A DNA stretch of 51,920 nt from Selenomonadaceae bacterium. GTDB lineage: Bacteria; Bacillota; Negativicutes; Selenomonadales; Selenomonadaceae. This document shows positions 4,955 through 31,507 of the stretch, piece after piece. A program made the position numbers and the translations under genes. Position 1 is the stretch's first letter. Every line of letters starts with the position of its first letter. Location: NCBI GenBank assembly GCA_017455645.1, contig JAFSZS010000008.1:1-51920 (forward strand). Direction: 5' to 3'. The notes beneath the pieces are model-generated. The model was not told the DNA's origin and did no database searches. It saw only the letters and a program-made list of their open reading frames with translations.

Positions 4955-5506
4955 TTGCAGAGCGATACAACAAAAAAAATCAGCACAGCCGCGCTTACAA
5001 AAATTTCAATGTGCGTGGCGTTGTGCTGTGTATCTGCGAATATTGTTTTCCCGCTGCCGTTTACACCCGGAATGGTAACGGCGTTGACAATCGTTTTGAG
5101 TTTGGCGGCGTACATTTTGACGCCCAAACAAACTTTCACGGTTATTGCGGTTTATTTAATGTTGGGAATTGCGGGCTTGCCGGTCTTTGCAGGTACGGGC
5201 GGAATTGGCAGGCTTTTAAGTCCGGTTGGAGGATTTTATTTGGCGTGGCTTGTAGCTTATCCGCTTTTAAGTTATTTCAAAGGCACGGAAATAAATTTCA
5301 AGCGTTACGTACTGATGAATTTTTTTATAGCAATGCCTGTAACTTACATTGGCGGATTGATTTCAATGATGGTAATGATGGAAATTGACATTTGGCAAGC
5401 GGCAACAATGGCTGTATTTCCCTTCATATTTGGCGACGTTTTGAAAACCTGCGCGGCGGCTTTTTTGGGCGTCAAATTAAATTCTGCCTTGCAATTCAGA
5501 GAATGA
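4955..5506 (+). CDS. bioY: Biotin transporter BioY (ECF S-component)
   Basis: ORF 4859..5506. AAGGAG at 4941-4946 favours TTG 4955 as the start. BioY-type sequence GLPVFAGTGGIGRLLSPVGGFYLAWLVAYPL is present and the protein is multi-TM. Confidence 0.8.
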   Translation: MQSDTTKKISTAALTKISMCVALCCVSANIVFPLPFTPGMVTALTIVLSLAAYILTPKQTFTVIAVYLMLGIAGLPVFAGTGGIGRLLSPVGGFYLAWLVAYPLLSYFKGTEINFKRYVLMNFFIAMPVTYIGGLISMMVMMEIDIWQAATMAVFPFIFGDVLKTCAAAFLGVKLNSALQFRE

Positions 5507-5529
5507 AAACCTGCGCGACCAAAAAAATT

Positions 5530-5553
5530 CTATTCCCTAACCACTATTCCCTA
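5530..5553. repeat. TAGGGAAT-family repeat copy (C-rich on plus strand)
   Basis: CTATTCCCTAACCACTATTCCCTA is the reverse complement of 1887-1910 with one mismatch. It sits between the convergent bioY and CAP-domain genes and overlaps the stop of the latter. Confidence 0.8.
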
Positions 5554-6024
5554 TTTAGTGCGGAAAAGTTGAGCCCAATAGTGTTTGTACTTTGAATCAG
5601 GCAAATATAAATATCCCATACCGAGTTCACGAAATTTGGGATTCATAATATTTTCTCTATGCCCGGGCGAATTCATCCACGCGGCGACAACTTCACTGGG
5701 CGAACGTTGACCGGCAGCGATATTTTCGCCAACTGTCCTGTAAGGTTTTGGAATGACTGTAAAGCAAGAATAGCCGCTTGGGCGAGTATGTGAAAATTTT
5801 TTGGTAATTTCTTTGGCGCGAATTTGCGCGTAGTGATTCATGGAGCTTGAAAGTTTCAGCGGCTTCAAATGTTCTTTGGCGCGTTCAATATTTACCAATT
5901 CCAAAACTTCCTGTGCGAAATTCGCCGAAACTTTATTTGAATTTTTCCAAGTACTTTGAGCAGAGACAATATTTACCGCGGCAAAAATAAAAATCATCAG
6001 CACGCTTGATAAAAATTTCTTCAT
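5551..6024 (-). CDS. Secreted CAP/SCP-domain protein (YkwD-like)
   Basis: 157 aa with an N-terminal signal peptide (MKKFLSSVLMIFIFAAVNIVSAQS). CAP motifs HTRPSG, GENIAAG and WMNSPGHRENI are present. Confidence 0.8.
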   Translation of the reverse strand: MKKFLSSVLMIFIFAAVNIVSAQSTWKNSNKVSANFAQEVLELVNIERAKEHLKPLKLSSSMNHYAQIRAKEITKKFSHTRPSGYSCFTVIPKPYRTVGENIAAGQRSPSEVVAAWMNSPGHRENIMNPKFRELGMGYLYLPDSKYKHYWAQLFRTK

Positions 6025-16358: not shown

Positions 16359-16709
16359 TTGAGAAAAGGCGATATTATCGAACTCGCAAAAAAAATGGTT
16401 GCCGCGCCGAGTTGTTACAGCGGCTTGAAAGAGGCAGGGCAAAATTGGCTTGATGCCGTTGGAACCAAAGGCGAAAAAGAAGCCGCGCAAAAATTAATTG
16501 CTGAACTTGAGGGCGATATTACGGATATTGACGGGCTTGTGGCGTTTGCACATTCAGAAATTCCTGCGCAAATGTTCGGGGCTGAAGGCGCAAAAAAATT
16601 CGCCGCTCACGCTGATGAACTCAAGGCAAGCGGCGCGAAATTCTGCGATTGCGGAGCTTGTGCGCCCGGCTTAGAAATTCTCAAAAACAAATCTTTGATT
16701 CTGGACTGA
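16359..16709 (+). CDS. Hypothetical small protein with a C-terminal CDCGAC motif
   Basis: ORF 16350..16709. AAGGAG at 16345-16350 favours TTG 16359 as the start. Its last ~16 codons form the first unit of the downstream 89-bp tandem array. Confidence 0.5.
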   Translation: MRKGDIIELAKKMVAAPSCYSGLKEAGQNWLDAVGTKGEKEAAQKLIAELEGDITDIDGLVAFAHSEIPAQMFGAEGAKKFAAHADELKASGAKFCDCGACAPGLEILKNKSLILD

Positions 16710-17152
16710 ATTTTTTCATTTATATTTTTTAAAATATAAGAAAATCTTTCATTGCGGGCTTAGAAATTCTCAAAAATAAATCTTTGATTCCGGATTGAAA
16801 TTTTTTATTTATATTTTTTAAAATGTAAGAAAATCTTTCATTGCGGGCTTGGAAATTCTCAAAAACAAATCTTTGATTCTCGACTGAAATTTTTTATTTA
16901 TATTTTTTAAAATGTAAGAAAATCTTTCATTGCGGGCTTAGAAATTCTCAAAAATAAATCTTTGATTCTCGACTGAAATTTTTTGTTTATATTTTTTAAA
17001 ATATAAGAAAATTTTCATTGCGAGCTTGGAAATTCTCAAAAACAAATCTTTGATTCCGAACTGAAATTTTTTGTTTATATTTTTTAAAATGTAAGAAAAT
17101 CTTTCATTGCGGGCTTGGAAATTCTCAAAAACAAATCTTTGATTCTCGACTG
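16660..17152. repeat. Tandem repeat array, 89-bp unit x about 5.5
   Basis: The motif GCTT(A/G)GAAATTCTC recurs at 16669, 16758, 16847, 16936, 17024 and 17113 (periods 89, 89, 89, 88, 89). Units differ by a few substitutions or indels. Confidence 0.9.
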
Positions 17153-17174
17153 ATTTTAAAAATTCAAATTAAAA

Positions 17175-18942: not shown

Positions 18943-19629
18943 TTAATCCTCGTCGTGGTGATGGTGGTGATGATGAATTTCCTTGCCGCGAATATCTTTA
19001 ATCGCCTGTGCAACGTCAGCCGCGCCGTAAATTGCCGAACCTGCAACCAAAATATTTGCGCCGGCTTCACGTACAAGAACGGAAGTTTCAGCGTTAATCC
19101 CGCCGTCAACTTGAATATCGCAATCTGTTTCCATTTCTTCAATCATATGATACAGCATGTGAATTTTGCCGAGCTGCGACTCAATAAATTTTTGCCCCGC
19201 GTAGCCGGGATTTACAGTCATAACCAAAATCATATCTGCATCTTCAACAAGTTCTTCAATCATTGAAAGGGAAGTACCGGGATTCATTGCAACTCCCGCC
19301 TTGCAGCCGAGTTCGTGAATTTGCTGAATAATTCTGTGCGGGTGTTTAGCCGTCTCAACGTGAAAAGTAATAATATCTGCGCCCGCGTCTGCGAAAGATT
19401 TTAACTGCGTTTCGGGGTGTTCAACCATTAAATGCACGTCAAAAATTAAATCAGAAACTTTTCTTAAAGATTTTACAACTGGCGCGCCAATGGTAATTTC
19501 CGGTACAAAAGTCCCGTCCATTACGTCAATATGAATATATTCTGCGCCCGCCTCCTTGACTTTTTTTAATTCGTCTGCCAAATGTGCAAAATCCGCCGAA
19601 AGTATCGAAGGTGCTATTTTTGTTGACAT
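18943..19629 (-). CDS. rpe: Ribulose-phosphate 3-epimerase with a C-terminal His7-DED tail
   Basis: 228 aa. Motifs IAPSILSADF, HIDVMDGTFVP, DVHLMV, MTVNPGYAGQKF and VDGGI are present. The protein ends ...GKEIHHHHHHHDED. Confidence 0.9.
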   Translation of the reverse strand: MSTKIAPSILSADFAHLADELKKVKEAGAEYIHIDVMDGTFVPEITIGAPVVKSLRKVSDLIFDVHLMVEHPETQLKSFADAGADIITFHVETAKHPHRIIQQIHELGCKAGVAMNPGTSLSMIEELVEDADMILVMTVNPGYAGQKFIESQLGKIHMLYHMIEEMETDCDIQVDGGINAETSVLVREAGANILVAGSAIYGAADVAQAIKDIRGKEIHHHHHHHDED

Positions 19630-21055: not shown

Positions 21056-21185
21056 TTTGAGTTCCCCCTTGTAAAATTAAAACCAATAAATCAAATATCG
21101 ATATATTTTAAGGTGTAAATTGTAAAGCAGAATTATACTTTTGGCAAGCGTTAAAAATTTTCTCAAATTGAACGGAGGCTTGATT

Positions 21186-23147
21186 ATGGATAATTATGAC
21201 GATACAGAAAATTTGGCAGTCGGAATAGATTTAGGTACAAGCAATTCAACCGTTGCGTACTTTCAAAATGGCGAATGTCATTTTCTGAAAATCCACGGTA
21301 AAAATTTTCTTTCGTCGGTTATATATTTTGCTGAAACTAAATGGATTTACGGCGAAAATGCTTTAAATTTCGGCAGTGCATACCCCGACGCGCTTTTTAA
21401 AAATTTTAAACTTTGCATTGGGGAAAAATCGCCGCAAATTTTTAAGGTAAAACCTGCCGCCGCCAAAACTAAGTATAAGTATATCATAGACGCAAATATT
21501 TTTATTGAATCGCCGTTTATCTTGGAAAAATTCGGCGAGGACGCAGAAATTATAATTCCAAAAATCGTAATTGAAGAATTGGAATACAAAAAAATTTTTC
21601 CTGAAACTGCCGACGAAGCCGAACTTGCTTTACAATCTATCGAAGAATATAAAAATATTATTTCGTTTGAAGATTCACATTTGGAACTTCTGAAAAATTC
21701 TTGCCTCAAAAATAATGCCAACGCCCTTTATCAAATTTTAAGCGTAGCACTCAGGCACGACGCCGCCGATACTGTTTTAATTTCCAATGATAAAATTCTT
21801 GCCAAAAAATCTGCCGATTTGACGCACAAATTTAAAATTCAAAATTATGCAATGTTCAACCTTTACCACAGAATAATTCAAAATATCAGCCACAAAGGCG
21901 AATTTCAAATTACCGGCAAAGACGCCGCCGCAATTTTTCTGCAACACCTGCGCGAAGAAATTTGCAAAAAAATAGGTTACGTCAGCAAGGCGGTTATTAC
22001 CGTGCCGCAGGAATTTTCGCCAATACAATACAACGAAATTAAAGACGCCGGTTTTACCGCCGGTTTTACTGAAATAGAATTGCAAACAGAACCAATAGCC
22101 GCGGCTGTTGCGTACGGAATGGAATTAATGGAAGATGCAATTATTTTGGTTTACGATTTCGGCGGCGGGACTTTTGACGTTTCAATTTTGAAAATTTCCG
22201 GCAATAATTTTACCCGCGTATCTTCGGGCGGCGATTCAAAATTGGGCGGCGAAAATTTTACTCAAGCAATTATCGAAGACTTCAAAGAAAAATTAATGGA
22301 CGCTGAAATTTTGGATATGTTCGACGAAGAAAATTCGGGGCTCTCGCACGAAGAATTTGCACAAAATAATTTTAAAATCTGGAAGGCTTGCGAAAATATC
22401 AAGTGCAATTTGTCTGAAACTCAAAACGAAAGTGAAACCATTCCGCTTTACGTGCGCCCTGGGCAAATTGAAGAAGTTGAATACAATCTTTCACGGGCTG
22501 AATTTGAAAATCTTACCGCCGAACTTATAGTAAAATCCAGAAAAGCCCTGGACCTTACTTTACAGCGTGCCAATTTGAAACGCGGCGATATTGACGTTGT
22601 AATTATGGCGGGCGGAACTTCTTTAATCCCTTGCATTGGTAATTTTGTCAGACAATATTTCGGTAAACAGCCGTATTCTGATAAAAATCCTGCTACTCTA
22701 ATTGCGGAAGGTGCCGCGTTTCTTGCAGATTTAAAATGGAATGACAATTCAACTTCCAATATTGAAATTTTCAATAAAACTATGACTGATTTGGGCGTTG
22801 CAGTCAAAGGGCATATTTTCAACGTGATAATTCCGGCTAATTCTGAATTGCCCATAGCCAAGGAAAGAGTTTATTTTCTGCAACGGGACGAACAAACAGA
22901 ATTGCTTATCGAAATTTTTACTCGTGATGAAGGCAGCAACGCAACACGAATTTTTGACAGCAGTATAAAATGTATTGGGCAGGTACAAATTTCAAACTTG
23001 CCGCCGCTGAAAAAAGACGAAGTTAGTATTTGGGTAAATTTCAGTTTGTCGCCGGAATATGAATTGGAAGTTGAAATTAATTTGAAAGATAATCAGGGCT
23101 TGGAAATTGAACAGGCGCAAGCTGTAATTAATTTGCTTGGAATTTAG
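21186..23147 (+). CDS. Hsp70/DnaK-like ATPase (lidless) with a PIN-like domain inserted in the nucleotide-binding domain
   Basis: ORF 21141..23147. GGAGG at 21174-21178 favours ATG 21186 as the start (653 aa). Hsp70 motifs VGIDLGTSNSTVAY, AVITVPQEF, EPIAAAVAYG, VYDFGGGTFDVSIL, LGGENF and VIMAGGTSLIP are present. The C-terminus is a beta-rich SBD-like region (DLGVAV...IIPANSELP). Confidence 0.85.
   Translation: MDNYDDTENLAVGIDLGTSNSTVAYFQNGECHFLKIHGKNFLSSVIYFAETKWIYGENALNFGSAYPDALFKNFKLCIGEKSPQIFKVKPAAAKTKYKYIIDANIFIESPFILEKFGEDAEIIIPKIVIEELEYKKIFPETADEAELALQSIEEYKNIISFEDSHLELLKNSCLKNNANALYQILSVALRHDAADTVLISNDKILAKKSADLTHKFKIQNYAMFNLYHRIIQNISHKGEFQITGKDAAAIFLQHLREEICKKIGYVSKAVITVPQEFSPIQYNEIKDAGFTAGFTEIELQTEPIAAAVAYGMELMEDAIILVYDFGGGTFDVSILKISGNNFTRVSSGGDSKLGGENFTQAIIEDFKEKLMDAEILDMFDEENSGLSHEEFAQNNFKIWKACENIKCNLSETQNESETIPLYVRPGQIEEVEYNLSRAEFENLTAELIVKSRKALDLTLQRANLKRGDIDVVIMAGGTSLIPCIGNFVRQYFGKQPYSDKNPATLIAEGAAFLADLKWNDNSTSNIEIFNKTMTDLGVAVKGHIFNVIIPANSELPIAKERVYFLQRDEQTELLIEIFTRDEGSNATRIFDSSIKCIGQVQISNLPPLKKDEVSIWVNFSLSPEYELEVEINLKDNQGLEIEQAQAVINLLGI
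21477..21860 (+). other. PIN-like (PhoH/YlaK-type) nuclease domain insert within the first Hsp70
   Basis: The insert reads YKYIIDANIFIESPFILEKFGEDAEIIIPKIVIEELEYKK ... LYQILSVALRHDAADTVLISNDKILAKKSADL. The pattern hhDxNhh / hIPxxVhEELD / hhh(S/T)xDxxLxxKA matches PIN domains. The three paralogues have no such insert. Confidence 0.65.
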
Positions 23148-23159
23148 GAGGAAAATTTT

Positions 23160-23777
23160 ATGGAAGATTATAACCCCGCAGAAGCTGAAAAATTGCTAAA
23201 TGACTTGAAAAATTTTTGCCTGTCAAATGGAGTTATTTTGGTTGAAAAAATTTCCGGCGAAGATAAAATTTTTGAAATTCAAACTGACAAACCAGCTTTT
23301 TACCTTGATATTAAATCTTTGGACGACGCCGCAAAACTCAACGAAATTTTAAAAGAGCACTTAGACACCTTGAAATCAGACAAAAAAATTTTTCTGCAGA
23401 ATCACAGCAAAATTGAGGAAAATATTTATAAAACAATCGACAGTATCAATTTAAGCCGCGCCCAAAAATTTATCGACAGTGGGCTGAAAAAATTTTTGAG
23501 TCAATATAAAACTGTTGAAGAATTACGCGAGGTGGCGGGGCAAATTTACGGCGATTTTATCAAGAGCCAATTAATCGACAGCTTTATTTCAAAATTGTAT
23601 GGCGAATTGAAAAAAAATCCCGGCGTTACTGCGTATATTTATATTGTTCGCAAATTTAATCAAATGTTTGCAGAATTGGGAATTACGGCGGTTGAGAGCA
23701 GCAGCGGGATTGTTTACAAGTTCAAGGAAAATTCCGGCGAAAAATTCATTGCCGAAGTAAAGGCGGGGGGCAAATAA
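23160..23777 (+). CDS. Hypothetical protein, partner 1 of the Hsp70 operon (205 aa, helical)
   Basis: AGGAGG lies 7 nt upstream of the ATG. The stop overlaps the next start (TAATG). No recognised motif. Confidence 0.6.
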   Translation: MEDYNPAEAEKLLNDLKNFCLSNGVILVEKISGEDKIFEIQTDKPAFYLDIKSLDDAAKLNEILKEHLDTLKSDKKIFLQNHSKIEENIYKTIDSINLSRAQKFIDSGLKKFLSQYKTVEELREVAGQIYGDFIKSQLIDSFISKLYGELKKNPGVTAYIYIVRKFNQMFAELGITAVESSSGIVYKFKENSGEKFIAEVKAGGK

Positions 23778-25282
23778 TGGCGTTATTTTTGGGAATTGAC
23801 TTTGGCACTTCAACAAATATGGTAACTTACTGGAATGAAGATAAAAAGCGCGCCGAGCCAATTTATTTGGGAGAGTACGGCGAAGCGGGATATTTTGCAA
23901 ATGTAATTTACTATGAATCTGAAAATAACATAATTGTTGGCGATGTTGCCTTGGCAAAGGGCAATTCAGATTTTTATAACGCTGTATTTTCTATTAAGCG
24001 GCGTTTGGAAAGTTCGGATTTTCGGCAGTACATACCAAATTTAAATCGGAGTCTCGGCACTGAAGAAATTGTGGCTGATATATTTTCTTGGATTAAAAAA
24101 AATGTTGAAATGAAATTTGGCGGGCAAAGTATTGACGGCGTGGTTATCAGCGTACCTTTTGCCTTTCAAAATACCGAACGTGAACGCATTAAAATTGCCG
24201 CTCGTCGCGCAGGGTTGCCGGTTTTAGGTTTGATTGAGGAACCGGTGGCGGCGGCGTTAAGTTTTGGGCTTTTTGAGGATGTCAAAAAATTGAAGGCTGA
24301 AAAAATTTTAGTCTTCGATTTAGGCGGCGGCACTTTCGACGTTACCATTTTTGAATTTTTAAAACAATCTGCCAAAAATTTTAAAATCCTCGTGCTTACC
24401 ACAGACGGCGAAAAGCAACTGGGCGGTATTGATATTGACGATGTACTTGTTAAAAAATTTCTGGAACAACTGAAGGCTGATTATCCTGATTATAATTTGG
24501 AAGCCGTCAGCACTGAAGAACAAGAAAAAGAAATTTTCAGCCTGCGCCAATTTGCCATTGACGTTAAAGAAAATTTGAGTGCTGAAGAAGAGTATGATTC
24601 ACTTTTTGAGAGCAGACTTGGAACGCAATATTTTTTGGAAAAAAATTTTACACGTGAAGAATTTGAAAATTATCTGCGCGAATTTTTGAATGAAATTGAA
24701 AATGTCCTTGACAGTACTTTAAGCGGGGCAGATTTGGAGCCGCAAGATATTGACAGAATAATAATGGTCGGCGGCACAAGTAATATCCCGGCGATTAATG
24801 AAAAAGTGCGTCAATATTTCGGCAAAGCTCCAGAAAAAATTGAGGATTTGGAAACAATGGTAGGCAGAGGCGCGGGGCTTTATTGCGGCTTAAAGTACGT
24901 TGAAAAAAATTTCGATTTTGATATTGCCGTTGGAATAAGCAAAACTACCGGCATTAAGTGGCGCGGAAAATTTCTTGAAATGTTGCCCAGAAATACTTTG
25001 TACGGTACGCCCTCCGAAGTTAAAATTTTGCAACTGCCCCAAAGTACAAAAGTTATAAAAATTCCGGTCGTACAAGGCAACAGTATAACAAATGTAAAAA
25101 TCGGCAGTGTAATTGTTACGCCCGAAATTCTTTCAAAATTAATTAACGGCAGAATCGGCGTCAAATTAAATACTGACGCAAATACCGGCACGATAAGCTA
25201 CGAACTTTATAAAATCGTTCTATTTAAAAATCAGTTACTGCCGGATAAAATTTTGAGCAAAGGCAATATAGGAGATGACTAA
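23777..25282 (+). CDS. Hsp70/DnaK-like ATPase, lidless (paralogue 2)
   Basis: 501 aa. Motifs LGIDFGTSTNMVTY, VVISVPFAF, EPVAAALSFG, VFDLGGGTFDVTIF, LGGIDID and IIMVGGTSNIP are present. Confidence 0.85.
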   Translation: MALFLGIDFGTSTNMVTYWNEDKKRAEPIYLGEYGEAGYFANVIYYESENNIIVGDVALAKGNSDFYNAVFSIKRRLESSDFRQYIPNLNRSLGTEEIVADIFSWIKKNVEMKFGGQSIDGVVISVPFAFQNTERERIKIAARRAGLPVLGLIEEPVAAALSFGLFEDVKKLKAEKILVFDLGGGTFDVTIFEFLKQSAKNFKILVLTTDGEKQLGGIDIDDVLVKKFLEQLKADYPDYNLEAVSTEEQEKEIFSLRQFAIDVKENLSAEEEYDSLFESRLGTQYFLEKNFTREEFENYLREFLNEIENVLDSTLSGADLEPQDIDRIIMVGGTSNIPAINEKVRQYFGKAPEKIEDLETMVGRGAGLYCGLKYVEKNFDFDIAVGISKTTGIKWRGKFLEMLPRNTLYGTPSEVKILQLPQSTKVIKIPVVQGNSITNVKIGSVIVTPEILSKLINGRIGVKLNTDANTGTISYELYKIVLFKNQLLPDKILSKGNIGDD

Positions 25283-25284
25283 AA

Positions 25285-26070
25285 ATGGCAACCAACCGCG
25301 GAAAAAATTCTTCTCAATATAATCAAGGAAATTTATGGTCAGAGGATTTTATTCCAATGAATGAAACAGAATTTCGTACCAGATTTGAATCCATTGACAA
25401 AAATTTGTTGACACTTGCAGAAAAAATAAAAGAGTTGCTGGATAAATTTAACGCGCCCAAAAAAGGCAGTAAAGCTCAAGAAATTTTGGAACAGTTGGAA
25501 AATTTGTCGGCGAAAATTGACAGTTTACCTAAATTTCAGGAAAAAAATCCCGTGTCAAATGACATTCCACAAGATGAAAAAATTATTGAAGAATTGGCTG
25601 AATACGGCGAAAAAATTATGCACCTTTTGGCAATAGCCGCCCGTTGTTACTCCCGCAAATTGCCGGAATTAAAAAAACATCAAGAAGATATTAAAAATAT
25701 CAATGACGCTAAAGAAAAAGAAAAAATTCAAGCCGAAAAAAAAGCCGAGGAACGCGGGCGTAAAGCCGTAATTAAAGACCTGCTTAATCTCTACAGTGAT
25801 ATTCACAACCATTCGGTACTTGCAACTTTTTTGGAAAATCAGGGCGTTGAAAAGCGTTACGAAATTAACGAAGAATTGGAAATTATCGAAAATAATATCA
25901 GAGAGTTGGAAACTTATATTGCTGAATTGCAAATTGGCAAAATTATTATCACTGCACCGGCGTATATTTTCGATGGTGAAGTAATAGCCAGGGCAACCTA
26001 CAAATTCGCGCAGGAAGATTCAACCGCCCAAAATTCGCAGGAAGATTCAGCCGCCCCAAAGGAAGTGTAA
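25285..26070 (+). CDS. Coiled-coil protein, partner 2 (possible GrpE-like exchange factor)
   Basis: 261 aa. It has a long charged helical region (KEKEKIQAEKKAEERGRKAVIKDLLNLY). The C-terminus QGVEKRYEI ... APAYIFDGEVIARATYKFA is reminiscent of the GrpE segments GVExI ... KGYxLxGRxIRxAxVxVA. The resemblance was judged by eye only. Confidence 0.55.
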   Translation: MATNRGKNSSQYNQGNLWSEDFIPMNETEFRTRFESIDKNLLTLAEKIKELLDKFNAPKKGSKAQEILEQLENLSAKIDSLPKFQEKNPVSNDIPQDEKIIEELAEYGEKIMHLLAIAARCYSRKLPELKKHQEDIKNINDAKEKEKIQAEKKAEERGRKAVIKDLLNLYSDIHNHSVLATFLENQGVEKRYEINEELEIIENNIRELETYIAELQIGKIIITAPAYIFDGEVIARATYKFAQEDSTAQNSQEDSAAPKEV

Positions 26071-26073
26071 ATT

Positions 26074-27738
26074 ATGGGCTTTTACGTAGGAATTGACTTG
26101 GGAACTACCAACAGTACAGTTTCTGTAATTCAAACAAAAAATACCGACGATTCACCACTTGACACGCTTACTACTTGCCCAATTTTTCAATATAAAACTA
26201 TTGGCGAATTTATAGCTGACGAATGTTTACCTTCCGCACTAAATTTTGATATTGATAACCGGCGAGTTTATACCGGGCTTTACGCCAAAAATATTTACGC
26301 TTCCGGCGAGCAATCGCTTCAAACTGCCGTATCTGTCAAAACTCGTATTGGCAGCGACGCAAGATTAGAAATTCCAAGCCGTTTTAGAAAAAATATTACT
26401 CAAATTTTCGATATGAAAGAATGCTCCGCGTTTTTTATTCGCACAATTGTAGATTCACTCAAGAAAAATTTTCCAAAATTGGCTGACATTATAACCAATG
26501 AATGTGTTGTAACAGTTCCGGCGGCTTTTAACGACGATGAAAGAGTTGCTACTCAAAACGCAGTTTTATTGGGCGGGTTCAAAAGTTGCAAAATTTTAGA
26601 TGAGCCGACAGCCGCTTTACTTTCCTATATCAACAGTGATTCTTATGACGACTCTGCAGACGACGATACAATTTACAAATTGGTTTACGATATTGGCGGC
26701 GGTACTCTAGATGTTTCAATAGCAAAATTGACAACAGATTTTTTTGGCGATTATAAAGTTGATATTGTGGCTTTATCAGACAGAATGAATTTGGGCGGAG
26801 ATAATTTTGACAGGTTGCTGGGCGCGTATTTTCTCAAGGAATTTGAAAATACCAATGAGCCGATACAATCTTACAGCAAAGAAAAGCAAGCTAAAATTAT
26901 TGCGCGTATAGTTTCGCAAGCTGAAGACTGCAAAATTAAACTTAACAAATTAATTTTGAATTGCGGCAACGATCAAAGAAAATTGGATAAAGTCAAGTTG
27001 GGGGTAGAATTTGAGTTAATCGATAATATGTACGTCAATGGAATTGTGCTGAATAAAAAAATTTTGGACGAATTATTTACTTGTTACACTTCGCCGGAGG
27101 AAAAATTTGGATTAATCGCCCCAATAAAAACTGCCCTTCAACGCGCAAATCTAAAAAAAGAAAATATCAGCGAAGTTATTTTAACCGGCGGAATGGCGCA
27201 ATTTTACGCTGTCAATGAAGCTATTCACAAATTTTTTAAGGACATTCCGATAAGCACTGTTGAAGATACACGAATTGCAGTTTCACGCGGCGCGGCTTTG
27301 TATCATTGGAGCCTTGACGAAGATAACGACGCTGACGACGTAAAAAAAATTTCTACTATCAGTAACAGATTAGCCGCAAATATTTATGTTCGCAATTCTG
27401 AAGGAATTTTTGAATTGCTTGTACCTTATGACCTTAGCGAAACTAAAGGCACTTTCAACTATATAATTTCAGATGACAATGTAACTTATTTTCCTTTTTA
27501 TTTATATTCGGGCAACGGAGATATTACTACTACCTACACGCAACTTGCCGGGCGTATGATTAAAGCCAAGCCGGAATACAAGCGCGGCTCCAAAATTCCG
27601 ATTGATTGGGAAATTGACGAAAACAAAGTTATTACGATAAAAATTCAAGACGACGACAATATAAAATTATCTCGCCTTTTAACGCCCGCCGAAATTTCCA
27701 ATAATGTAATTAATCGCTATTCAATCAACAGGAGTTAA
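26074..27738 (+). CDS. Hsp70/DnaK-like ATPase, lidless (paralogue 3)
   Basis: 554 aa. Motifs VGIDLGTTNSTVSV, VVTVPAAFNDDER, EPTAALLSY, VYDIGGGTLDVSIA, LGGDNFD and VILTGGMAQF are present. Confidence 0.85.
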   Translation: MGFYVGIDLGTTNSTVSVIQTKNTDDSPLDTLTTCPIFQYKTIGEFIADECLPSALNFDIDNRRVYTGLYAKNIYASGEQSLQTAVSVKTRIGSDARLEIPSRFRKNITQIFDMKECSAFFIRTIVDSLKKNFPKLADIITNECVVTVPAAFNDDERVATQNAVLLGGFKSCKILDEPTAALLSYINSDSYDDSADDDTIYKLVYDIGGGTLDVSIAKLTTDFFGDYKVDIVALSDRMNLGGDNFDRLLGAYFLKEFENTNEPIQSYSKEKQAKIIARIVSQAEDCKIKLNKLILNCGNDQRKLDKVKLGVEFELIDNMYVNGIVLNKKILDELFTCYTSPEEKFGLIAPIKTALQRANLKKENISEVILTGGMAQFYAVNEAIHKFFKDIPISTVEDTRIAVSRGAALYHWSLDEDNDADDVKKISTISNRLAANIYVRNSEGIFELLVPYDLSETKGTFNYIISDDNVTYFPFYLYSGNGDITTTYTQLAGRMIKAKPEYKRGSKIPIDWEIDENKVITIKIQDDDNIKLSRLLTPAEISNNVINRYSINRS

Positions 27739-27742
27739 AATT

Positions 27743-29110
27743 ATGAATACCGAAGAATTGAACGAAATATTTAACGCCTTAAATCGAATTAACAGGAGCC
27801 TTGACGAACGCTTTACAAAGGACGCAGATTTTTACATTGAACAGGAACAGATTGAAATTCTCAAAGATTTAATTTACCGTGGCGAATATGATAAAATTGC
27901 TGAAAATTTTAATTCCCGCGTGGTTTTGAATTGGATTGTAAAAAATGCGTGGCTGATTAAAAATGAAAATTACGCGGTACTTCAAAAAATTTTCGACGAT
28001 TGCCCGGACGATTATTTAAAAATTATAATGAGCCAAGATTTTTTTGATAACAAAATTGAAATGCCCGCAAGTTTCAGATTTTGGTTACTTTCAAATTATC
28101 TTAAGCGGCTTGATGAAAAAGCTTGCTCCGATATGTTGCAGGGTAATTTAATTTTTCTGAATCAGCCGACTTTAAGGGCAATTTGCGTCGCGCAGATTCT
28201 CAAAAATAAATCGATTGACGAACGCTACAAAATTTTCAATGAATATTCAATTCAAAGCCCCAATCTTTTATCGCAGGAAAAAATTTTTTCGCCGATATTT
28301 TCTAAACTTAATGACGCCGTAAGAAATTTTATTTTTGAAAATCATTTCGCCCAAGAAACGCCGGCAAGTAAATTTTGGGCTGATATTTTGTCTGCTGAAG
28401 ATGTTCCCTTTATGATGGAAAAATTCAAGCGATATTGTCAAACGCACTCGGCAAATTTGGACGCCTGCAAAGATGTAGACGTAAGATTGTTTTGGATTTC
28501 TACCAAAAATTTTCCGGTGTACGCCAAAGGATTTGCGGCGGCTTGTGCTTGTATGATTCGTACAAAAAATATCAATTTACAAAAAGCCTTGGCAATTTAT
28601 GAACTGAATCACTTTAGCAGATGGGAGCAAGAAAAAAATCAGCTTAAGGCAGAATTGGCAAAAGTTGGAATTACTGATATTGAGGGCGGCGGAGTTTTTA
28701 ACTTTGACGAAATAAAAGAGCGTCTGAATTATCACGGGGCTAATTTTGAAAAACTTTTGTCTGACAACGTTTACCGTTTCCTTGCAGTTTCTTTCAAAAA
28801 AACTTGCGCCCCCGAAGATTTAAAAAAACTTTTTAAGGAAGTTAAATTTCGTGACAGATTTGAGAAACTTTGTTGCCTTCTGATTAAGTTTACAGACAGC
28901 AATTACCAATTAAATTTTGACTATATAAATTGCATGGTTCAGATTATCCCGCAGGAAACCAACAAATATAATCCTTTGGTCGCGTACCTTTTGGATTTTA
29001 TCGCCAACAATAATATTTTGATAAAATACAGGCGTTTTGGAACTTACAATATAGAAAAATTTTTTAGAGAAAAAGATTTTGGGCGTTTTGTTAAAATTGC
29101 ACATTTTTAA
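27743..29110 (+). CDS. Hypothetical all-helical protein, partner 3 (455 aa, no recognised domain)
   Basis: A long ORF with only a 4-nt gap to its upstream neighbour. It is rich in F/K/N/L, with no motif I can name. Confidence 0.6.
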   Translation: MNTEELNEIFNALNRINRSLDERFTKDADFYIEQEQIEILKDLIYRGEYDKIAENFNSRVVLNWIVKNAWLIKNENYAVLQKIFDDCPDDYLKIIMSQDFFDNKIEMPASFRFWLLSNYLKRLDEKACSDMLQGNLIFLNQPTLRAICVAQILKNKSIDERYKIFNEYSIQSPNLLSQEKIFSPIFSKLNDAVRNFIFENHFAQETPASKFWADILSAEDVPFMMEKFKRYCQTHSANLDACKDVDVRLFWISTKNFPVYAKGFAAACACMIRTKNINLQKALAIYELNHFSRWEQEKNQLKAELAKVGITDIEGGGVFNFDEIKERLNYHGANFEKLLSDNVYRFLAVSFKKTCAPEDLKKLFKEVKFRDRFEKLCCLLIKFTDSNYQLNFDYINCMVQIIPQETNKYNPLVAYLLDFIANNNILIKYRRFGTYNIEKFFREKDFGRFVKIAHF

Positions 29111-29125
29111 AACGGGGTGTAATTT

Positions 29126-30580
29126 ATGAATTTCATTGGAATAGATTTAGGTACGACAAATTCGGTTGCTTGTACATTTCAGCGCGGCGATTTTAAATTT
29201 CTAAAATTTTCTGGGAAAGTTTTATTACCTTCGGCGGTTATGTTCAAAGACGGGAAAATTAAAGTTGGCGAGGCTGCCAAAAATTTTTCACAACGCTACC
29301 CAAATAACGTTATAACTTCTGCCAAAACTTATATGGGCGATAATGGTCATTTTTGGGAAATTGACGGGCGCAAATTTACGGCAACAGATGTAGCCGCGGA
29401 AGTTTTGCGGGAAATTTATAAATCTGCGCGAAAATTTTTTAATAACGCTGAAGAAATATCGGCAGTCATAACCGTACCGGAGCAATTTTCAGCCAATCAA
29501 CGAGCCGAAACAAAAAAAGCCGGCGAATCGGCAGGATTTACAGTAAAACAAATTTTGACTGAACCTGTAGCGGCGGCTATTGCATACGCTTTTGGAAATT
29601 CTAAGCCCAATGAAAAAATTTACGTTGTAGACTTGGGCGGCGGCACTTTCGACGTTGCATTACTTGAGGCGCGCGAAGATGATTATTACAAAACTTTGAT
29701 ACAGGGCGGAAATCGTTCCTTGGGCGGCGATGACTTCGATAAAGCGTTGGTAAATATAATGATAATCGAAATTTTTACAAATACCGGCGTTGAATTAACA
29801 GAGGCTGAAAAATCCGGCTTGAGTCCCGCGCAATATTCAACAACCATTCAAAAAATTTACATTGAAGCCGAAAAAGTCAAACGGGCGTTAAGTAATGCTG
29901 AATCTGCGCAAGTCGATATAAAAAATTTGTTCCCGTACAAGGACGGCGTTTTTGATTTTCATATGACAATAACCCGTGAAGAATTTTTAAAAGAAATTTC
30001 TCAATATGTGCAGGAAATTGAAACTGTAATAAAAAATTCATTTGAAGGTACAGAATTTAGCGCGGCAGATGTAGACCGTGTAATTTTAGTAGGCGGCTCT
30101 GCAATGATGCCTTTTGTCAGGGAATGCGTACAAAAAATTTTCAACAAAGAACCTTATTCTATTGACGACCTTTCAAAATTGGTTGCAATGGGCGCGGCAA
30201 TTTTCGCAGATGATACGCTCGGCAACGGGATTGAACACCACGATATTATTTCTCATTCTTTCGGCGTTGAATTAGTTGGTAAGAGAATGGAAAAAATGTT
30301 ACTGCAAAATGAAGAATACCCCTGCGAACGCACAAAAACTTTTTATACTGTCGAAGATAACCAAAAAGCAGTAAGAATTAATGCTTACGAAGGCGAAGAT
30401 ACCGAAGAAGTGGAGCAGAATCGTTATATAGGCGGATTTGTATTGCGGGGAATTGAAAAAGCTCCCGCCGGTAAAAAAATTGAAATACGATTTGCCTTTG
30501 ATAAGAATTGCATTTTGCACGTTATGGCGAAAGACCCAAAAAAGCCCGGCGTTGAAAAAGAAATTGATTTAACTACATGA
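29126..30580 (+). CDS. Hsp70/DnaK-like ATPase, lidless (paralogue 4, most DnaK/HscC-like)
   Basis: 484 aa. Motifs IGIDLGTTNSVAC, AVITVPEQFSANQR, EPVAAAIAYA, VVDLGGGTFDVALL, LGGDDFD and VILVGGSAMMP are present. An SBD-beta region follows (SHSFGVEL ... INAYEGED ... IEIRFAFDKNCILHVMA). Confidence 0.9.
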   Translation: MNFIGIDLGTTNSVACTFQRGDFKFLKFSGKVLLPSAVMFKDGKIKVGEAAKNFSQRYPNNVITSAKTYMGDNGHFWEIDGRKFTATDVAAEVLREIYKSARKFFNNAEEISAVITVPEQFSANQRAETKKAGESAGFTVKQILTEPVAAAIAYAFGNSKPNEKIYVVDLGGGTFDVALLEAREDDYYKTLIQGGNRSLGGDDFDKALVNIMIIEIFTNTGVELTEAEKSGLSPAQYSTTIQKIYIEAEKVKRALSNAESAQVDIKNLFPYKDGVFDFHMTITREEFLKEISQYVQEIETVIKNSFEGTEFSAADVDRVILVGGSAMMPFVRECVQKIFNKEPYSIDDLSKLVAMGAAIFADDTLGNGIEHHDIISHSFGVELVGKRMEKMLLQNEEYPCERTKTFYTVEDNQKAVRINAYEGEDTEEVEQNRYIGGFVLRGIEKAPAGKKIEIRFAFDKNCILHVMAKDPKKPGVEKEIDLTT

Positions 30581-30595
30581 GCGGGAGAGTTTTTT

Positions 30596-31507
30596 ATGCC
30601 TTTGGAAAGAAAATCTGATGCGCCCAAAAAAGTTGAAGAAGAAAATATTTTTGTACCGGAAGAGCCGCGCTACAGTCTTGACGATATTATTTTAACACAA
30701 TCGACAAGAGACCAAATTTTGGACGTGGCAACTTACGCCGAAAATTCGCAGTTGGTTTTTGACATTTGGGGATTTAACAAGACGCACAAATATTCAAAGC
30801 GCGTTGGAATAAATTTGTACGGCGCGCCCGGCACGGGTAAAACTATGGCGGCGCACGCAATAGCTAAGCAACTTGGCAAAAAAATTTTAATCGTCAACTA
30901 CGCGGATATTGAATCAAAGTACGTTGGCGAAACTCCAAAAAATATCAGAAAAGCATTTGAGGCGGCGAAAAATTCCGGCAGCATTTTATTTTTTGACGAG
31001 GCGGACGCAATTTTGAGCAAGCGCGTTACAAATATGACGCAAGCCGTTGATGTCAGCGTAAATCAGACGCGCTCGGTTATGTTAATGTTAATGAATGAAT
31101 ATCAAGATTTTATAATTTTTGCCACGAATTTTATTGAAAACTTTGACGCGGCTTTTATGCGCCGAATTTCTGTACACGTGAAATTTGAATTGCCTGATTT
31201 TGAGTGCAGGAAAAAACTTTGGCAAATGTACATTCCAACAGAATTTGCGGCGCAGTTTGAAAATCTTGACATTGACGAACTTGCAGGAAAATATTCCGGA
31301 ATTTCCGGCAGTGACATTTCAAACGCTGTACTCAACGCCGCTTTTAAAGCTGCGCGACTTGTTCCCGACGGCAACGTTCAAAACGCCGCGCTTAAAGCAA
31401 AATATAAAGCCTCCTACACCAATTCAAATAAACTCGACAAGAAAATTTTGTTTGACGCGGTAGAAAATATTTTGGAAAGTAAGCGTGCTAACGATGGAAA
31501 AATTTAA
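30596..31507 (+). CDS. Classical-clade AAA+ ATPase (single AAA module)
   Basis: 303 aa. It has Walker A GAPGTGKT, Walker B ILFFDEAD, sensor-1 FATN, and arginine-rich DAAFMRR of the second region of homology. Confidence 0.9.
   Translation: MPLERKSDAPKKVEEENIFVPEEPRYSLDDIILTQSTRDQILDVATYAENSQLVFDIWGFNKTHKYSKRVGINLYGAPGTGKTMAAHAIAKQLGKKILIVNYADIESKYVGETPKNIRKAFEAAKNSGSILFFDEADAILSKRVTNMTQAVDVSVNQTRSVMLMLMNEYQDFIIFATNFIENFDAAFMRRISVHVKFELPDFECRKKLWQMYIPTEFAAQFENLDIDELAGKYSGISGSDISNAVLNAAFKAARLVPDGNVQNAALKAKYKASYTNSNKLDKKILFDAVENILESKRANDGKI

Follow-up and report, generated by a model that had tools for sequence, protein, structure and literature searches.

An Hsp70 with a PIN domain embedded in its ATPase domain, and its four-Hsp70 gene cassette, in a Selenomonadaceae bacterium

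The Hsp70-PIN gene and its cassette

A contig of a Selenomonadaceae bacterium (assembly GCA_017455645.1, contig JAFSZS010000008.1) encodes an Hsp70 that carries a PIN domain inside its ATPase domain. The whole stretch analysed, 51,920 nucleotides, is referred to as the window; coordinates without a locus name refer to it and, unless stated otherwise, to its forward strand. The Hsp70-PIN gene (21186-23147) is the first of seven genes in a cassette that occupies 21059-30591, including its own upstream region (21059-21185), as defined by blastn break points against an empty site. From its ATG start, the open reading frame (ORF) encodes a protein of 653 amino acids (aa) consisting of a nucleotide-binding domain (NBD) with the PIN domain in subdomain IB, followed by the beta subdomain of the substrate-binding domain (SBD-beta) and lacking an alpha-helical lid. 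An alternative TTG start at 21141, 15 codons upstream, would give 668 aa.

An earlier note on this DNA, prepared from the letters alone, had proposed that a PIN nuclease domain is inserted at 21477-21860 into the ATPase domain of the first Hsp70. This stretch lies in frame within the single ORF 21186-23147 and encodes residues 98-225 (KYIIDAN...AMFN). The proposal holds: the Pfam profile PIN_4 (PF13638) matches residues 99-209 well above threshold (E=2.9e-11, 44.2 bits against a gathering score of 21.9), the AlphaFold2 (AF2) model displays a confident PIN fold, and the site of insertion is a hairpin of subdomain IB. The Pfam HSP70 profile (PF00012) matches the protein as a whole with E=1.2e-75, split into two stretches around PIN_4. 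Pfam finds no PIN domain in the other three Hsp70 genes of the cassette (23777-25282, 26074-27738 and 29126-30580), which the note had likewise described as lacking the insert.

The PIN domain spans 21471-21845 (residues ~96-220), its modelled secondary structure running from a strand at 97-101 to a strand at 217-219, and is followed by a connecting helix at 21846-21896 (residues 221-237). Modelled alone, the PIN segment has strands alternating with helices and an AF2 predicted local distance difference test (pLDDT) score of 91.2. Foldseek matches this isolated model to 3ix7, SMG6/EST1A (2dok/2hww), Rrp44, VapC and Nmd4 with probability 1.0 and TMq of 0.56-0.75. Similarly, a profile built from 16 PIN segments of the family matches the SMG6 PIN domain (2hww) with E=2.6e-7. 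Taken together with the Pfam match and the presence of an insert at the same site in 120 clusters of homologues, these results identify the embedded domain as a PIN_4/SMG6/PhoH2-type fold, far beyond chance, and the fold is predicted to be ordered (pLDDT ~90).

The more specific label of a PhoH/YlaK-like domain is also apt, because the stretch matched by PIN_4 weakly matches the N-terminal PIN of PhoH2 in NCBIfam (E=5.7e-6) and because tblastn searches against phage genomes return PhoH proteins only. The protein itself falls outside PhoH2: the NCBIfam model NF053827 scores 25.6 bits against a cut-off of 680, over the PIN portion only. Like PhoH2, which belongs to the same PIN_4 subfamily, Hsp70-PIN couples a PIN RNase covalently to an NTPase. 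In PhoH2, however, the PIN domain is fused N-terminally to a P-loop ATPase, whereas in Hsp70-PIN it is an internal insert in an actin-fold NBD, and a PhoH domain is lacking. SMG6/EST1A (2hww, 2dok) and Dis3/Rrp44 provide the closest solved relatives by both profile and fold, and their D/E/D/D residues align one to one with the consensus of the Hsp70-PIN family. Unlike Hsp70-PIN, these are eukaryotic RNA-decay factors with terminal PIN domains.

The full-length AF2 model, built on 117 homologues, has a mean pLDDT of 90.1 and a predicted TM-score (pTM) of 0.91, with low confidence only at residues 1-7 and 171-180. A strand at 84-87 leads into the strand/helix module at 97-219, the connecting helix at 221-237, a strand at 239-242 and then a long helix that reaches the AVITVP motif. 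The AlphaFold check that the earlier note had suggested thereby places an ordered PIN fold between strands 84-87 and 239-242. The insert was sited by reference to the DnaK landmarks KRLIGR, the PFKII/AWVEV hairpin and PPQISAEVL, in that order. In the model, this comparison puts the insertion point at the tip of a beta-hairpin in NBD subdomain IB.

Outside the insert, the protein retains the architecture of an Hsp70. Foldseek aligns the full model with ATP-state structures of DnaK, BiP and Ssb across ~650 columns, at target-normalised TM-scores of 0.66-0.80. The C-terminal domain (527-651) is beta-rich, as expected of an SBD-beta, and the Pfam HSP70 match ends at profile position 478 of 599. 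The protein ends directly after SBD-beta and therefore lacks the helical lid. Residues D15, K75, E302, D324, T329 and D331 correspond to DnaK D8, K70, E171, D194, T199 and D201. All but K75 are invariant in the 117 Hsp70-PIN sequences of alignment A2; K75 is conserved in at least 90% of that alignment and is invariant in alignment A1. By these alignments, Hsp70-PIN retains every ATPase catalytic residue.

Hsp70-PIN is thus a member of both the PIN_4 and the Hsp70 superfamilies by profile and fold. It resembles the canonical Hsp70s DnaK, HscA and BiP in its NBD and SBD-beta folds and in all catalytic and phosphate-binding motifs. It differs from them in lacking the lid and the C-terminal tail, in the ~150 residues inserted in subdomain IB and in being one of four paralogues in a cassette, with no DnaJ or GrpE encoded in the window. 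Its NCBIfam score of 247 bits lies far below the equivalog cut-offs for DnaK (648) and HscA (708), the DnaK/HscA cut-offs spanning 648-822.

The remaining six genes follow Hsp70-PIN closely, and all seven ORFs are intact and tightly spaced. The window shares its gene order with nine further loci: Hsp70-PIN, accessory protein 1, Hsp70 paralogue 2, accessory protein 2, Hsp70 paralogue 3, accessory protein 3 and, usually, Hsp70 paralogue 4, with one-to-one orthology at each position. Accessory protein 1 (205 aa; 23160-23777) has no known domain and has one-to-one orthologues after Hsp70-PIN in eight other loci. Paralogue 2 (501 aa; 23777-25282; Pfam HSP70 E=2.4e-58) has orthologues in loci L001, L002 and L003. 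Accessory protein 2 (261 aa; 25285-26070) is coiled-coil-like and corresponds to only the C-terminal half of orthologues of 356-581 aa; for example, its blastp match to L1_481 covers residues 233-412 of the latter, and a profile search against the Protein Data Bank (PDB) gives coiled-coil noise only. Paralogue 3 (554 aa; 26074-27738; Pfam HSP70 E=5.6e-44) also has orthologues, as does accessory protein 3 (455 aa; 27743-29110), a protein without a known domain that is 36% identical to L1_453 over its full length. Paralogue 4 (484 aa; 29126-30580; Pfam HSP70 E=4.5e-94) lacks the C-terminal VWA domain of its orthologues: it is 71% identical to residues 1-482 of a 668-aa Hsp70-VWA protein in L001, and VWA is found on the orthologues in L001, L003 and L090. 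All four Hsp70 paralogues keep the ATPase motifs and SBD-beta.

The three accessory proteins are helical, and none of them has a Pfam, PADLOC or PDB-profile match. Examined as possible analogues of J-domain proteins or nucleotide exchange factors, they gave no support for either role, lacking an HPD motif as well as any profile match in Pfam or the PDB. It was also considered that the 205-aa accessory protein 1 might have arisen by separation of the C-terminal domain from homologues of Hsp70-PIN of ~860 aa; this was rejected because the extra ~200 aa of those homologues are N-terminal and represent a remnant of a kinase C-lobe. The cassette in the window is a reduced version, with no N-terminal extension on Hsp70-PIN, a half-length accessory protein 2 and no VWA on paralogue 4.

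The Hsp70-PIN family and its nuclease site

The earlier note knew of no other protein with this domain architecture. In sequence databases it is not unprecedented, merely unannotated: a search for homologues returned at least 120 clusters (at 90% identity) with both PF00012 and PF13638, down to 34% identity. The clusters come from Firmicutes (Lachnospiraceae), a gammaproteobacterial metagenome-assembled genome and many metagenomes, and their database names are only 'Hsp70 family protein' or 'molecular chaperone DnaK'. The family as a whole is estimated at ~20-25 clusters at 50% identity, comprising several hundred sequences. Searching 1.84 billion representative sequences with a PIN profile gave 19 matches at E<=1e-30 and 528 at E<=1e-10. 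Hsp70-PIN proteins account for ~22-25 of the best 150 matches; the remaining top matches are PIN_4 domains at the C termini of SF1 helicases, KH-S1 proteins or OST-HTH proteins. A contig scan with the full-length alignment A1 (motifs DFGGGTFD and AVITVP) yielded essentially ordinary DnaK loci, aligned over residues ~243-621 only. A literature search, with most subscription journals outside its coverage, turned up no account of Hsp70-PIN fusions or of cassettes with four Hsp70s. The architecture therefore defines a conserved and unannotated family that is apparently undescribed.

The N terminus varies within the family, and the window protein has no N-terminal extension at all. Many homologues (P0002, P0017, P0039 and others) have ~200 N-terminal aa that match only the C-lobe of protein kinases. 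These kinase-like N termini display an APE-like DEYSAPELL motif and have apparently lost the catalytic-loop Asp. In P0129 the N terminus consists of ~600 aa of BspA-type leucine-rich repeats (LRR), and Lachnospiraceae members have an acidic N-terminal region. Judged by sequence, the kinase C-lobe and LRR segments would be variable, sensor-like modules.

Assignment of the nuclease site was based on a hidden Markov model (HMM) alignment to 2hww, with SMG6 numbering offset by 1238 and anchored by the E1282C mutant entry 2hwx; conservation was assessed by motif counting and curated alignments. The first catalytic Asp, D102 (codon 21489-21491), aligns with the PDTN Asp of 2hww, SMG6 D1251. E131 (21576-21578) corresponds to SMG6 E1282, the residue mutated in 2hwx, and the fourth acidic residue, D202 (21789-21791), aligns with the TDD motif of 2hww, SMG6 D1392. 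These are the residues the earlier note had singled out in the motifs IIDAN, IEELE and ISND; all three are present, and they are invariant in 117 aligned homologues. The findings that the note had named as fatal to its proposal, namely no PIN match, a disordered insert or acidic residues that vary among homologues, are the reverse of what was observed, given the PIN_4 match, the pLDDT of ~90 and the three invariant acids.

The third catalytic Asp sets the window copy apart from its family. The HMM alignment places L181 (codon CTT, 21726-21728) at the position of SMG6 D1353. In ~117 of 121 family sequences this Asp is kept within an N-D-[NS]-[KR]-I-L motif, whereas the window protein and P0001, its 98%-identical twin, read NNANALYQIL instead. 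The note's caveat that NANALYQIL might signal a missing metal ligand was well placed. Just upstream of Leu181, the window protein also has a 6-residue deletion that shortens the loop, and the loop (171-180) is the sole segment of low pLDDT within the PIN domain. The lower PIN_4 score of the window protein (44 bits, against 59-66 in homologues) is due to this degenerate loop. The acidic tetrad of PIN nucleases is complete in the family at large and incomplete in the window copy. Mutation at the third Asp position inactivates SMG6 and VapC-type PIN domains, and VapC D98N structures are among the Foldseek fold matches. The window PIN, with Leu at this position, is therefore probably nuclease-dead or strongly impaired. 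For the family in general, we infer from residue conservation that the site is catalytically competent. The description of the insert as a nuclease effector, as put forward in the earlier note, accordingly divides: it is plausible for the family, in which the Asp is retained in ~117 of 121 sequences, and probably wrong for the window copy, with its Leu181 and shortened loop.

The probable impairment of the PIN site has not been accompanied by loss of constraint. Between the window gene and that of the twin strain (L085), the ratio of non-synonymous to synonymous substitution rates (dN/dS) comes to 0.11 over the full gene; the PIN segment alone gives 0.24, from just 4 non-synonymous and 4 synonymous changes. 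These values indicate purifying selection, and the gene is therefore not a pseudogene. In this reduced system, the PIN may be kept as a structural or RNA-binding module.

One explanation extends such a role to the family: the PIN domain would bind nucleic acids or serve for docking, and would thereby direct a remodelling machine of several Hsp70s to RNA, ribosomes or a partner protein. The output would then be ATP-driven remodelling or sequestration, or would be delivered by add-on proteins (VWA, HerA, dynamin, metallo-beta-lactamase (MBL)), rather than RNA cleavage by Hsp70-PIN. Inactive PIN domains that serve as binding modules are well known, for example the SMG5 PIN and Nmd4, and both SMG5 (2hwy) and Nmd4 (8rdd) are among the fold matches of the embedded domain. 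The window protein and its twin lack the D1353-equivalent Asp and yet evolve at a dN/dS of 0.11 (0.24 for the PIN), and the extra enzymes that accompany the cassette differ from locus to locus. A similar case is P0118 (695 aa, contig 177856), which keeps the Hsp70 and the insert and has lost most PIN motifs (YLVDAA, no E-L, SQQACLAL), so that PF13638 is not scored; to judge from these motifs, the nuclease site has here degenerated a second time, independently. However, both degenerate cases are terminal, rare lineages. The four acidic residues are present in ~117 of 121 members, three of them strictly invariant down to 33% identity, and such conservation across a divergent family is hard to explain without catalysis. 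A docking module as the general function is thus considered unlikely.

Exchange of the cassette and its surroundings

Comparison with related genomes indicates that the cassette is an optional part of its locus. In a sister Selenomonadaceae genome (L091), in which the flanking MFS gene is 94% identical, the site is empty: the AAA gene is divergent from MFS across a 226-bp spacer, and blastn alignment to the window breaks at 21058 and 30592. In another related genome, L084, a cassette occupies the same site. Its seven proteins are only 38-68% identical to those of the window, whereas the flank proteins are 90-95% identical (MFS 95, BcrAD 94.6, TM2 93, DJ-1 92.6, AAA 93.7), and DNA identity is 65-68% inside the cassette and 83-90% outside. 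The two alleles (L084 10001-19490 and window 21186-30580) also differ in gene lengths, with Hsp70 paralogue 2 measuring 378 aa in L084 and 501 aa in the window, and accessory protein 2 measuring 356 and 261 aa. These differences in length and sequence suggest swapping of cassettes at a shared site rather than divergence in place. Furthermore, the cassette has a GC content of 37.2%, compared with 41.5% in its flanks. The empty site, the divergent allele between conserved flanks and the lower GC content mark the cassette as an accessory, exchangeable unit; on this comparative evidence it is horizontally mobile and quickly diversifying, which is a generic property of defence loci.

The same comparison bears on the possibility that the window cassette is a decaying, reduced and non-functional remnant whose PIN insert has no present function. 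The loss of the catalytic Asp with the adjoining 6-residue deletion is in line with decay, as are the missing N-terminal extension, the half-length accessory protein 2 and the paralogue 4 without VWA. On the other hand, the seven ORFs are intact with tight spacing, and the dN/dS of 0.11 relative to L085 reflects purifying selection. Moreover, the L084 allele is equally reduced in layout while its PIN motif is intact, which makes the short form a stable variant rather than a sign of decay. A functionless remnant is accordingly judged improbable.

The cassette ends before an AAA+ ATPase gene (30596-31507), a resident flank gene that resembles IetA (PADLOC IetA, 8.8e-36). Its NCBIfam IteA score is 120 bits against a cut-off of 510, and no IetS protease gene adjoins it in the window, which places it outside the IetAS (Gao_Iet) system. 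It was considered as an eighth cassette gene and rejected, as the protein is 93.7% identical to that of L084 and the gene is also present at the empty site of L091. At L091 (8856-9767), the AAA gene, a CxxCxxCC (YkgJ-like) gene and a DJ-1/PfpI gene together make up one unit.

Two further features lie upstream of the cassette in the window. At 16668-17153, an AT-rich 89-bp unit is repeated in 5.5 tandem copies with 93% matches, in the intergenic region upstream of the TM2/Halogen_Hydrol gene; L084 has ~1-2 copies only of this unit. On the reverse strand, at 18943-19629, a ribulose-phosphate 3-epimerase has a natural His-rich tail (HHHHHHHDED), and its ORF extends into the start region of the PHP-family gene that lies downstream.

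At several other loci the cassette is found beside defence genes. PglZ/BrxL (BREX) genes lie directly upstream in L001, a type I restriction-modification (RM) system is beside the cassette in L002, an Eco57I-ResIII enzyme in L086 and SNF2 helicases in L087 and L089. RM, BREX or SNF2 neighbours are absent from the window locus and from L084, L003 and L090. Companions at the other loci include HerA/DUF87 proteins, a dynamin-like GTPase, SNF2 helicases, a DnaJ protein, an MBL-fold protein and radical-SAM genes together with GreA/B-like genes. By analogy, the variable add-ons (pseudokinase C-lobe or LRR N termini, VWA, HerA/DUF87, dynamin-like GTPase and MBL) would be typical of immune systems.

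Some of these companions have features of their own. In Lachnospiraceae bacterium C1.1 (L002, 12312-13460), an MBL-fold gene with a match to the Anti-Pycsar protein Apyc1 directly follows Hsp70-PIN and is itself followed by a gene for a 945-aa Hsp70 paralogue; the MBL-fold protein may be an extra effector or a link to cyclic nucleotides. Just upstream of the cassette in L089, the gene for a 279-aa DnaJ-domain protein (4978-5817) is flanked by those for an SNF2-type helicase and a DUF87/HerA ATPase. No other J-protein was seen close to a cassette, and this one hints that some variants may be regulated through a J-domain. Radical-SAM (Fer4_12) genes encoding ~290-310 aa are found beside the cassettes of the distant genomes L089 (20392-22007), L090 (971-3694) and L087 (6120-9542), in company with GreA/GreB-like, deoxynucleoside/thymidylate-kinase-like and AAA_28 genes, an arrangement reminiscent of viperin-plus-kinase pairs. 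The radical-SAM gene of L087 may simply be NrdG next to NrdD.

A candidate conflict system

Hsp70 homologues have been described in other predicted conflict systems. Examples are the CnuD protein of CoCoNuTs, for which RNA targeting has been proposed, and McrB-Hsp70 fusions (both PMC11090510), together with HSP70 in systems built around DO-GTPases (PMC7159879). These systems, as well as the PADLOC candidate PDC-M61B, resemble the present cassette in the use of Hsp70 NBD/SBD homologues for a predicted role in conflict, and Hsp70 paralogues 2 and 4 have weak PADLOC matches to PDC-M61B only. The cassette, unlike CoCoNuTs and DO-GTPase systems, has no McrB/McrC, GAP1 or tubulin. The ATPase motifs of CnuD are described as degenerate (PMC11090510), whereas those of Hsp70-PIN are invariant, and none of the CoCoNuT, DO-GTPase or PDC-M61B Hsp70s has an embedded nuclease.

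A second point of contact is the PIN domain itself. Kaur et al. 2020 (PMC7159879) describe combinations of PIN with SF1 helicases and with S1/KH effectors in NTP-dependent conflict systems, and the PIN domains of SF1-helicase and KH-S1 proteins are the nearest PIN sequences outside the Hsp70-PIN family in the profile search (E ~1e-20 to 1e-26). VWA domains, FtsK/HerA-like ATPases and GTPases, which are found beside the Hsp70 cassettes, are component types of those systems as well. The systems described in PMC7159879 have MoxR-vWA or GTPase cores and terminal effectors, in contrast to a core of four Hsp70s with an internal PIN. By analogy, Hsp70-PIN and its cassette would combine a coupling like that of PhoH2 or helicase-PIN proteins with a recruitment of Hsp70s like that of CoCoNuT and DO-GTPase systems, while being a member of none of them.

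There is an even chance, in our estimation, that the cassette is an undescribed conflict system, directed against phages or mobile elements, in which the Hsp70 ATPase cycle gates the embedded RNase. In the proposed mechanism, the Hsp70 paralogues and their accessory partners would form an ATP-driven sensor and switch. Binding of a peptide or client, whether by SBD-beta or by the variable N-terminal or accessory modules, would shift the NBD to a different nucleotide state and thereby move subdomain IB. This motion would expose or assemble the active site of the embedded PIN domain, and the activated PIN would then cut RNA. Complex formation, the trigger, the allosteric gating, the RNA target and the role of the cassette in defence are all inferred. 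A narrower form of the proposal, in which the cassette represents an unrecognised class of immune system and the four specialised Hsp70 paralogues with their dedicated partners assemble into an ATP-driven sensor that recognises a phage-derived client and switches on the RNase via nucleotide-dependent motion of subdomain IB, is put forward tentatively and with less than even confidence.

Several observations weigh against a conflict system with the PIN domain as its effector. By raw count, clear defence neighbours are present at just ~4-5 of ~8 distinct loci, and the genes that flank the cassette in the window and related genomes have housekeeping functions rather than forming a defence island. 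Searches for copies of the cassette on plasmids or phages found none. No PADLOC-DB v2 model matches Hsp70-PIN or accessory proteins 1, 2 and 3, and none was found for Hsp70 paralogue 3. Finally, the missing catalytic Asp of the window copy and the degenerate PIN of P0118 imply that nuclease activity is dispensable in at least some lineages, which, on the sequences at hand, weakens the case for the PIN as the effector.

Some of these observations would also fit a housekeeping or stress system that controls the quality of RNA or proteins, such as a set of Hsp70s that associates with ribosomes and includes a nuclease for RNA surveillance, following the logic of SMG6 or Dis3. The Selenomonadaceae cassette sits amid metabolic genes, plasmid and phage copies are lacking, the PIN domain is closest to those of the RNA-surveillance proteins SMG6, Dis3/Rrp44 and Nmd4, and all four Hsp70s retain ATPase motifs and SBD-beta. 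A housekeeping role is, however, at odds with presence and absence of the cassette among close relatives, including the empty site, with allelic identities of 38-68% within flanks of 90-95%, and with a patchy spread over phyla and a lower GC content. RM and BREX neighbours elsewhere and the variable, sensor-like N termini also speak against it, and such a role is regarded as improbable.

Hsp70s are among the best-studied allosteric ATPases, and an enzyme spliced into subdomain IB offers a model for how NBD motion can be harnessed; Hsp70-PIN could also serve as a design template. A natural test set is available, in that alleles with the PIN site intact (P0010) or degenerate (the window) occupy the same chromosomal locus beside a natural empty site. 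If the reading of the cassette as an immune system with a gated RNase is true, Hsp70-PIN would be the first case of an Hsp70 NBD exerting allosteric control over a nuclease lodged within it. A role of the cassette in defence, if confirmed, would add chaperone-based sensing to bacterial immunity, parallel to the Hsp70-like proteins of CoCoNuTs and to bNACHT25, which reportedly relies on DnaJ-dependent sensing.

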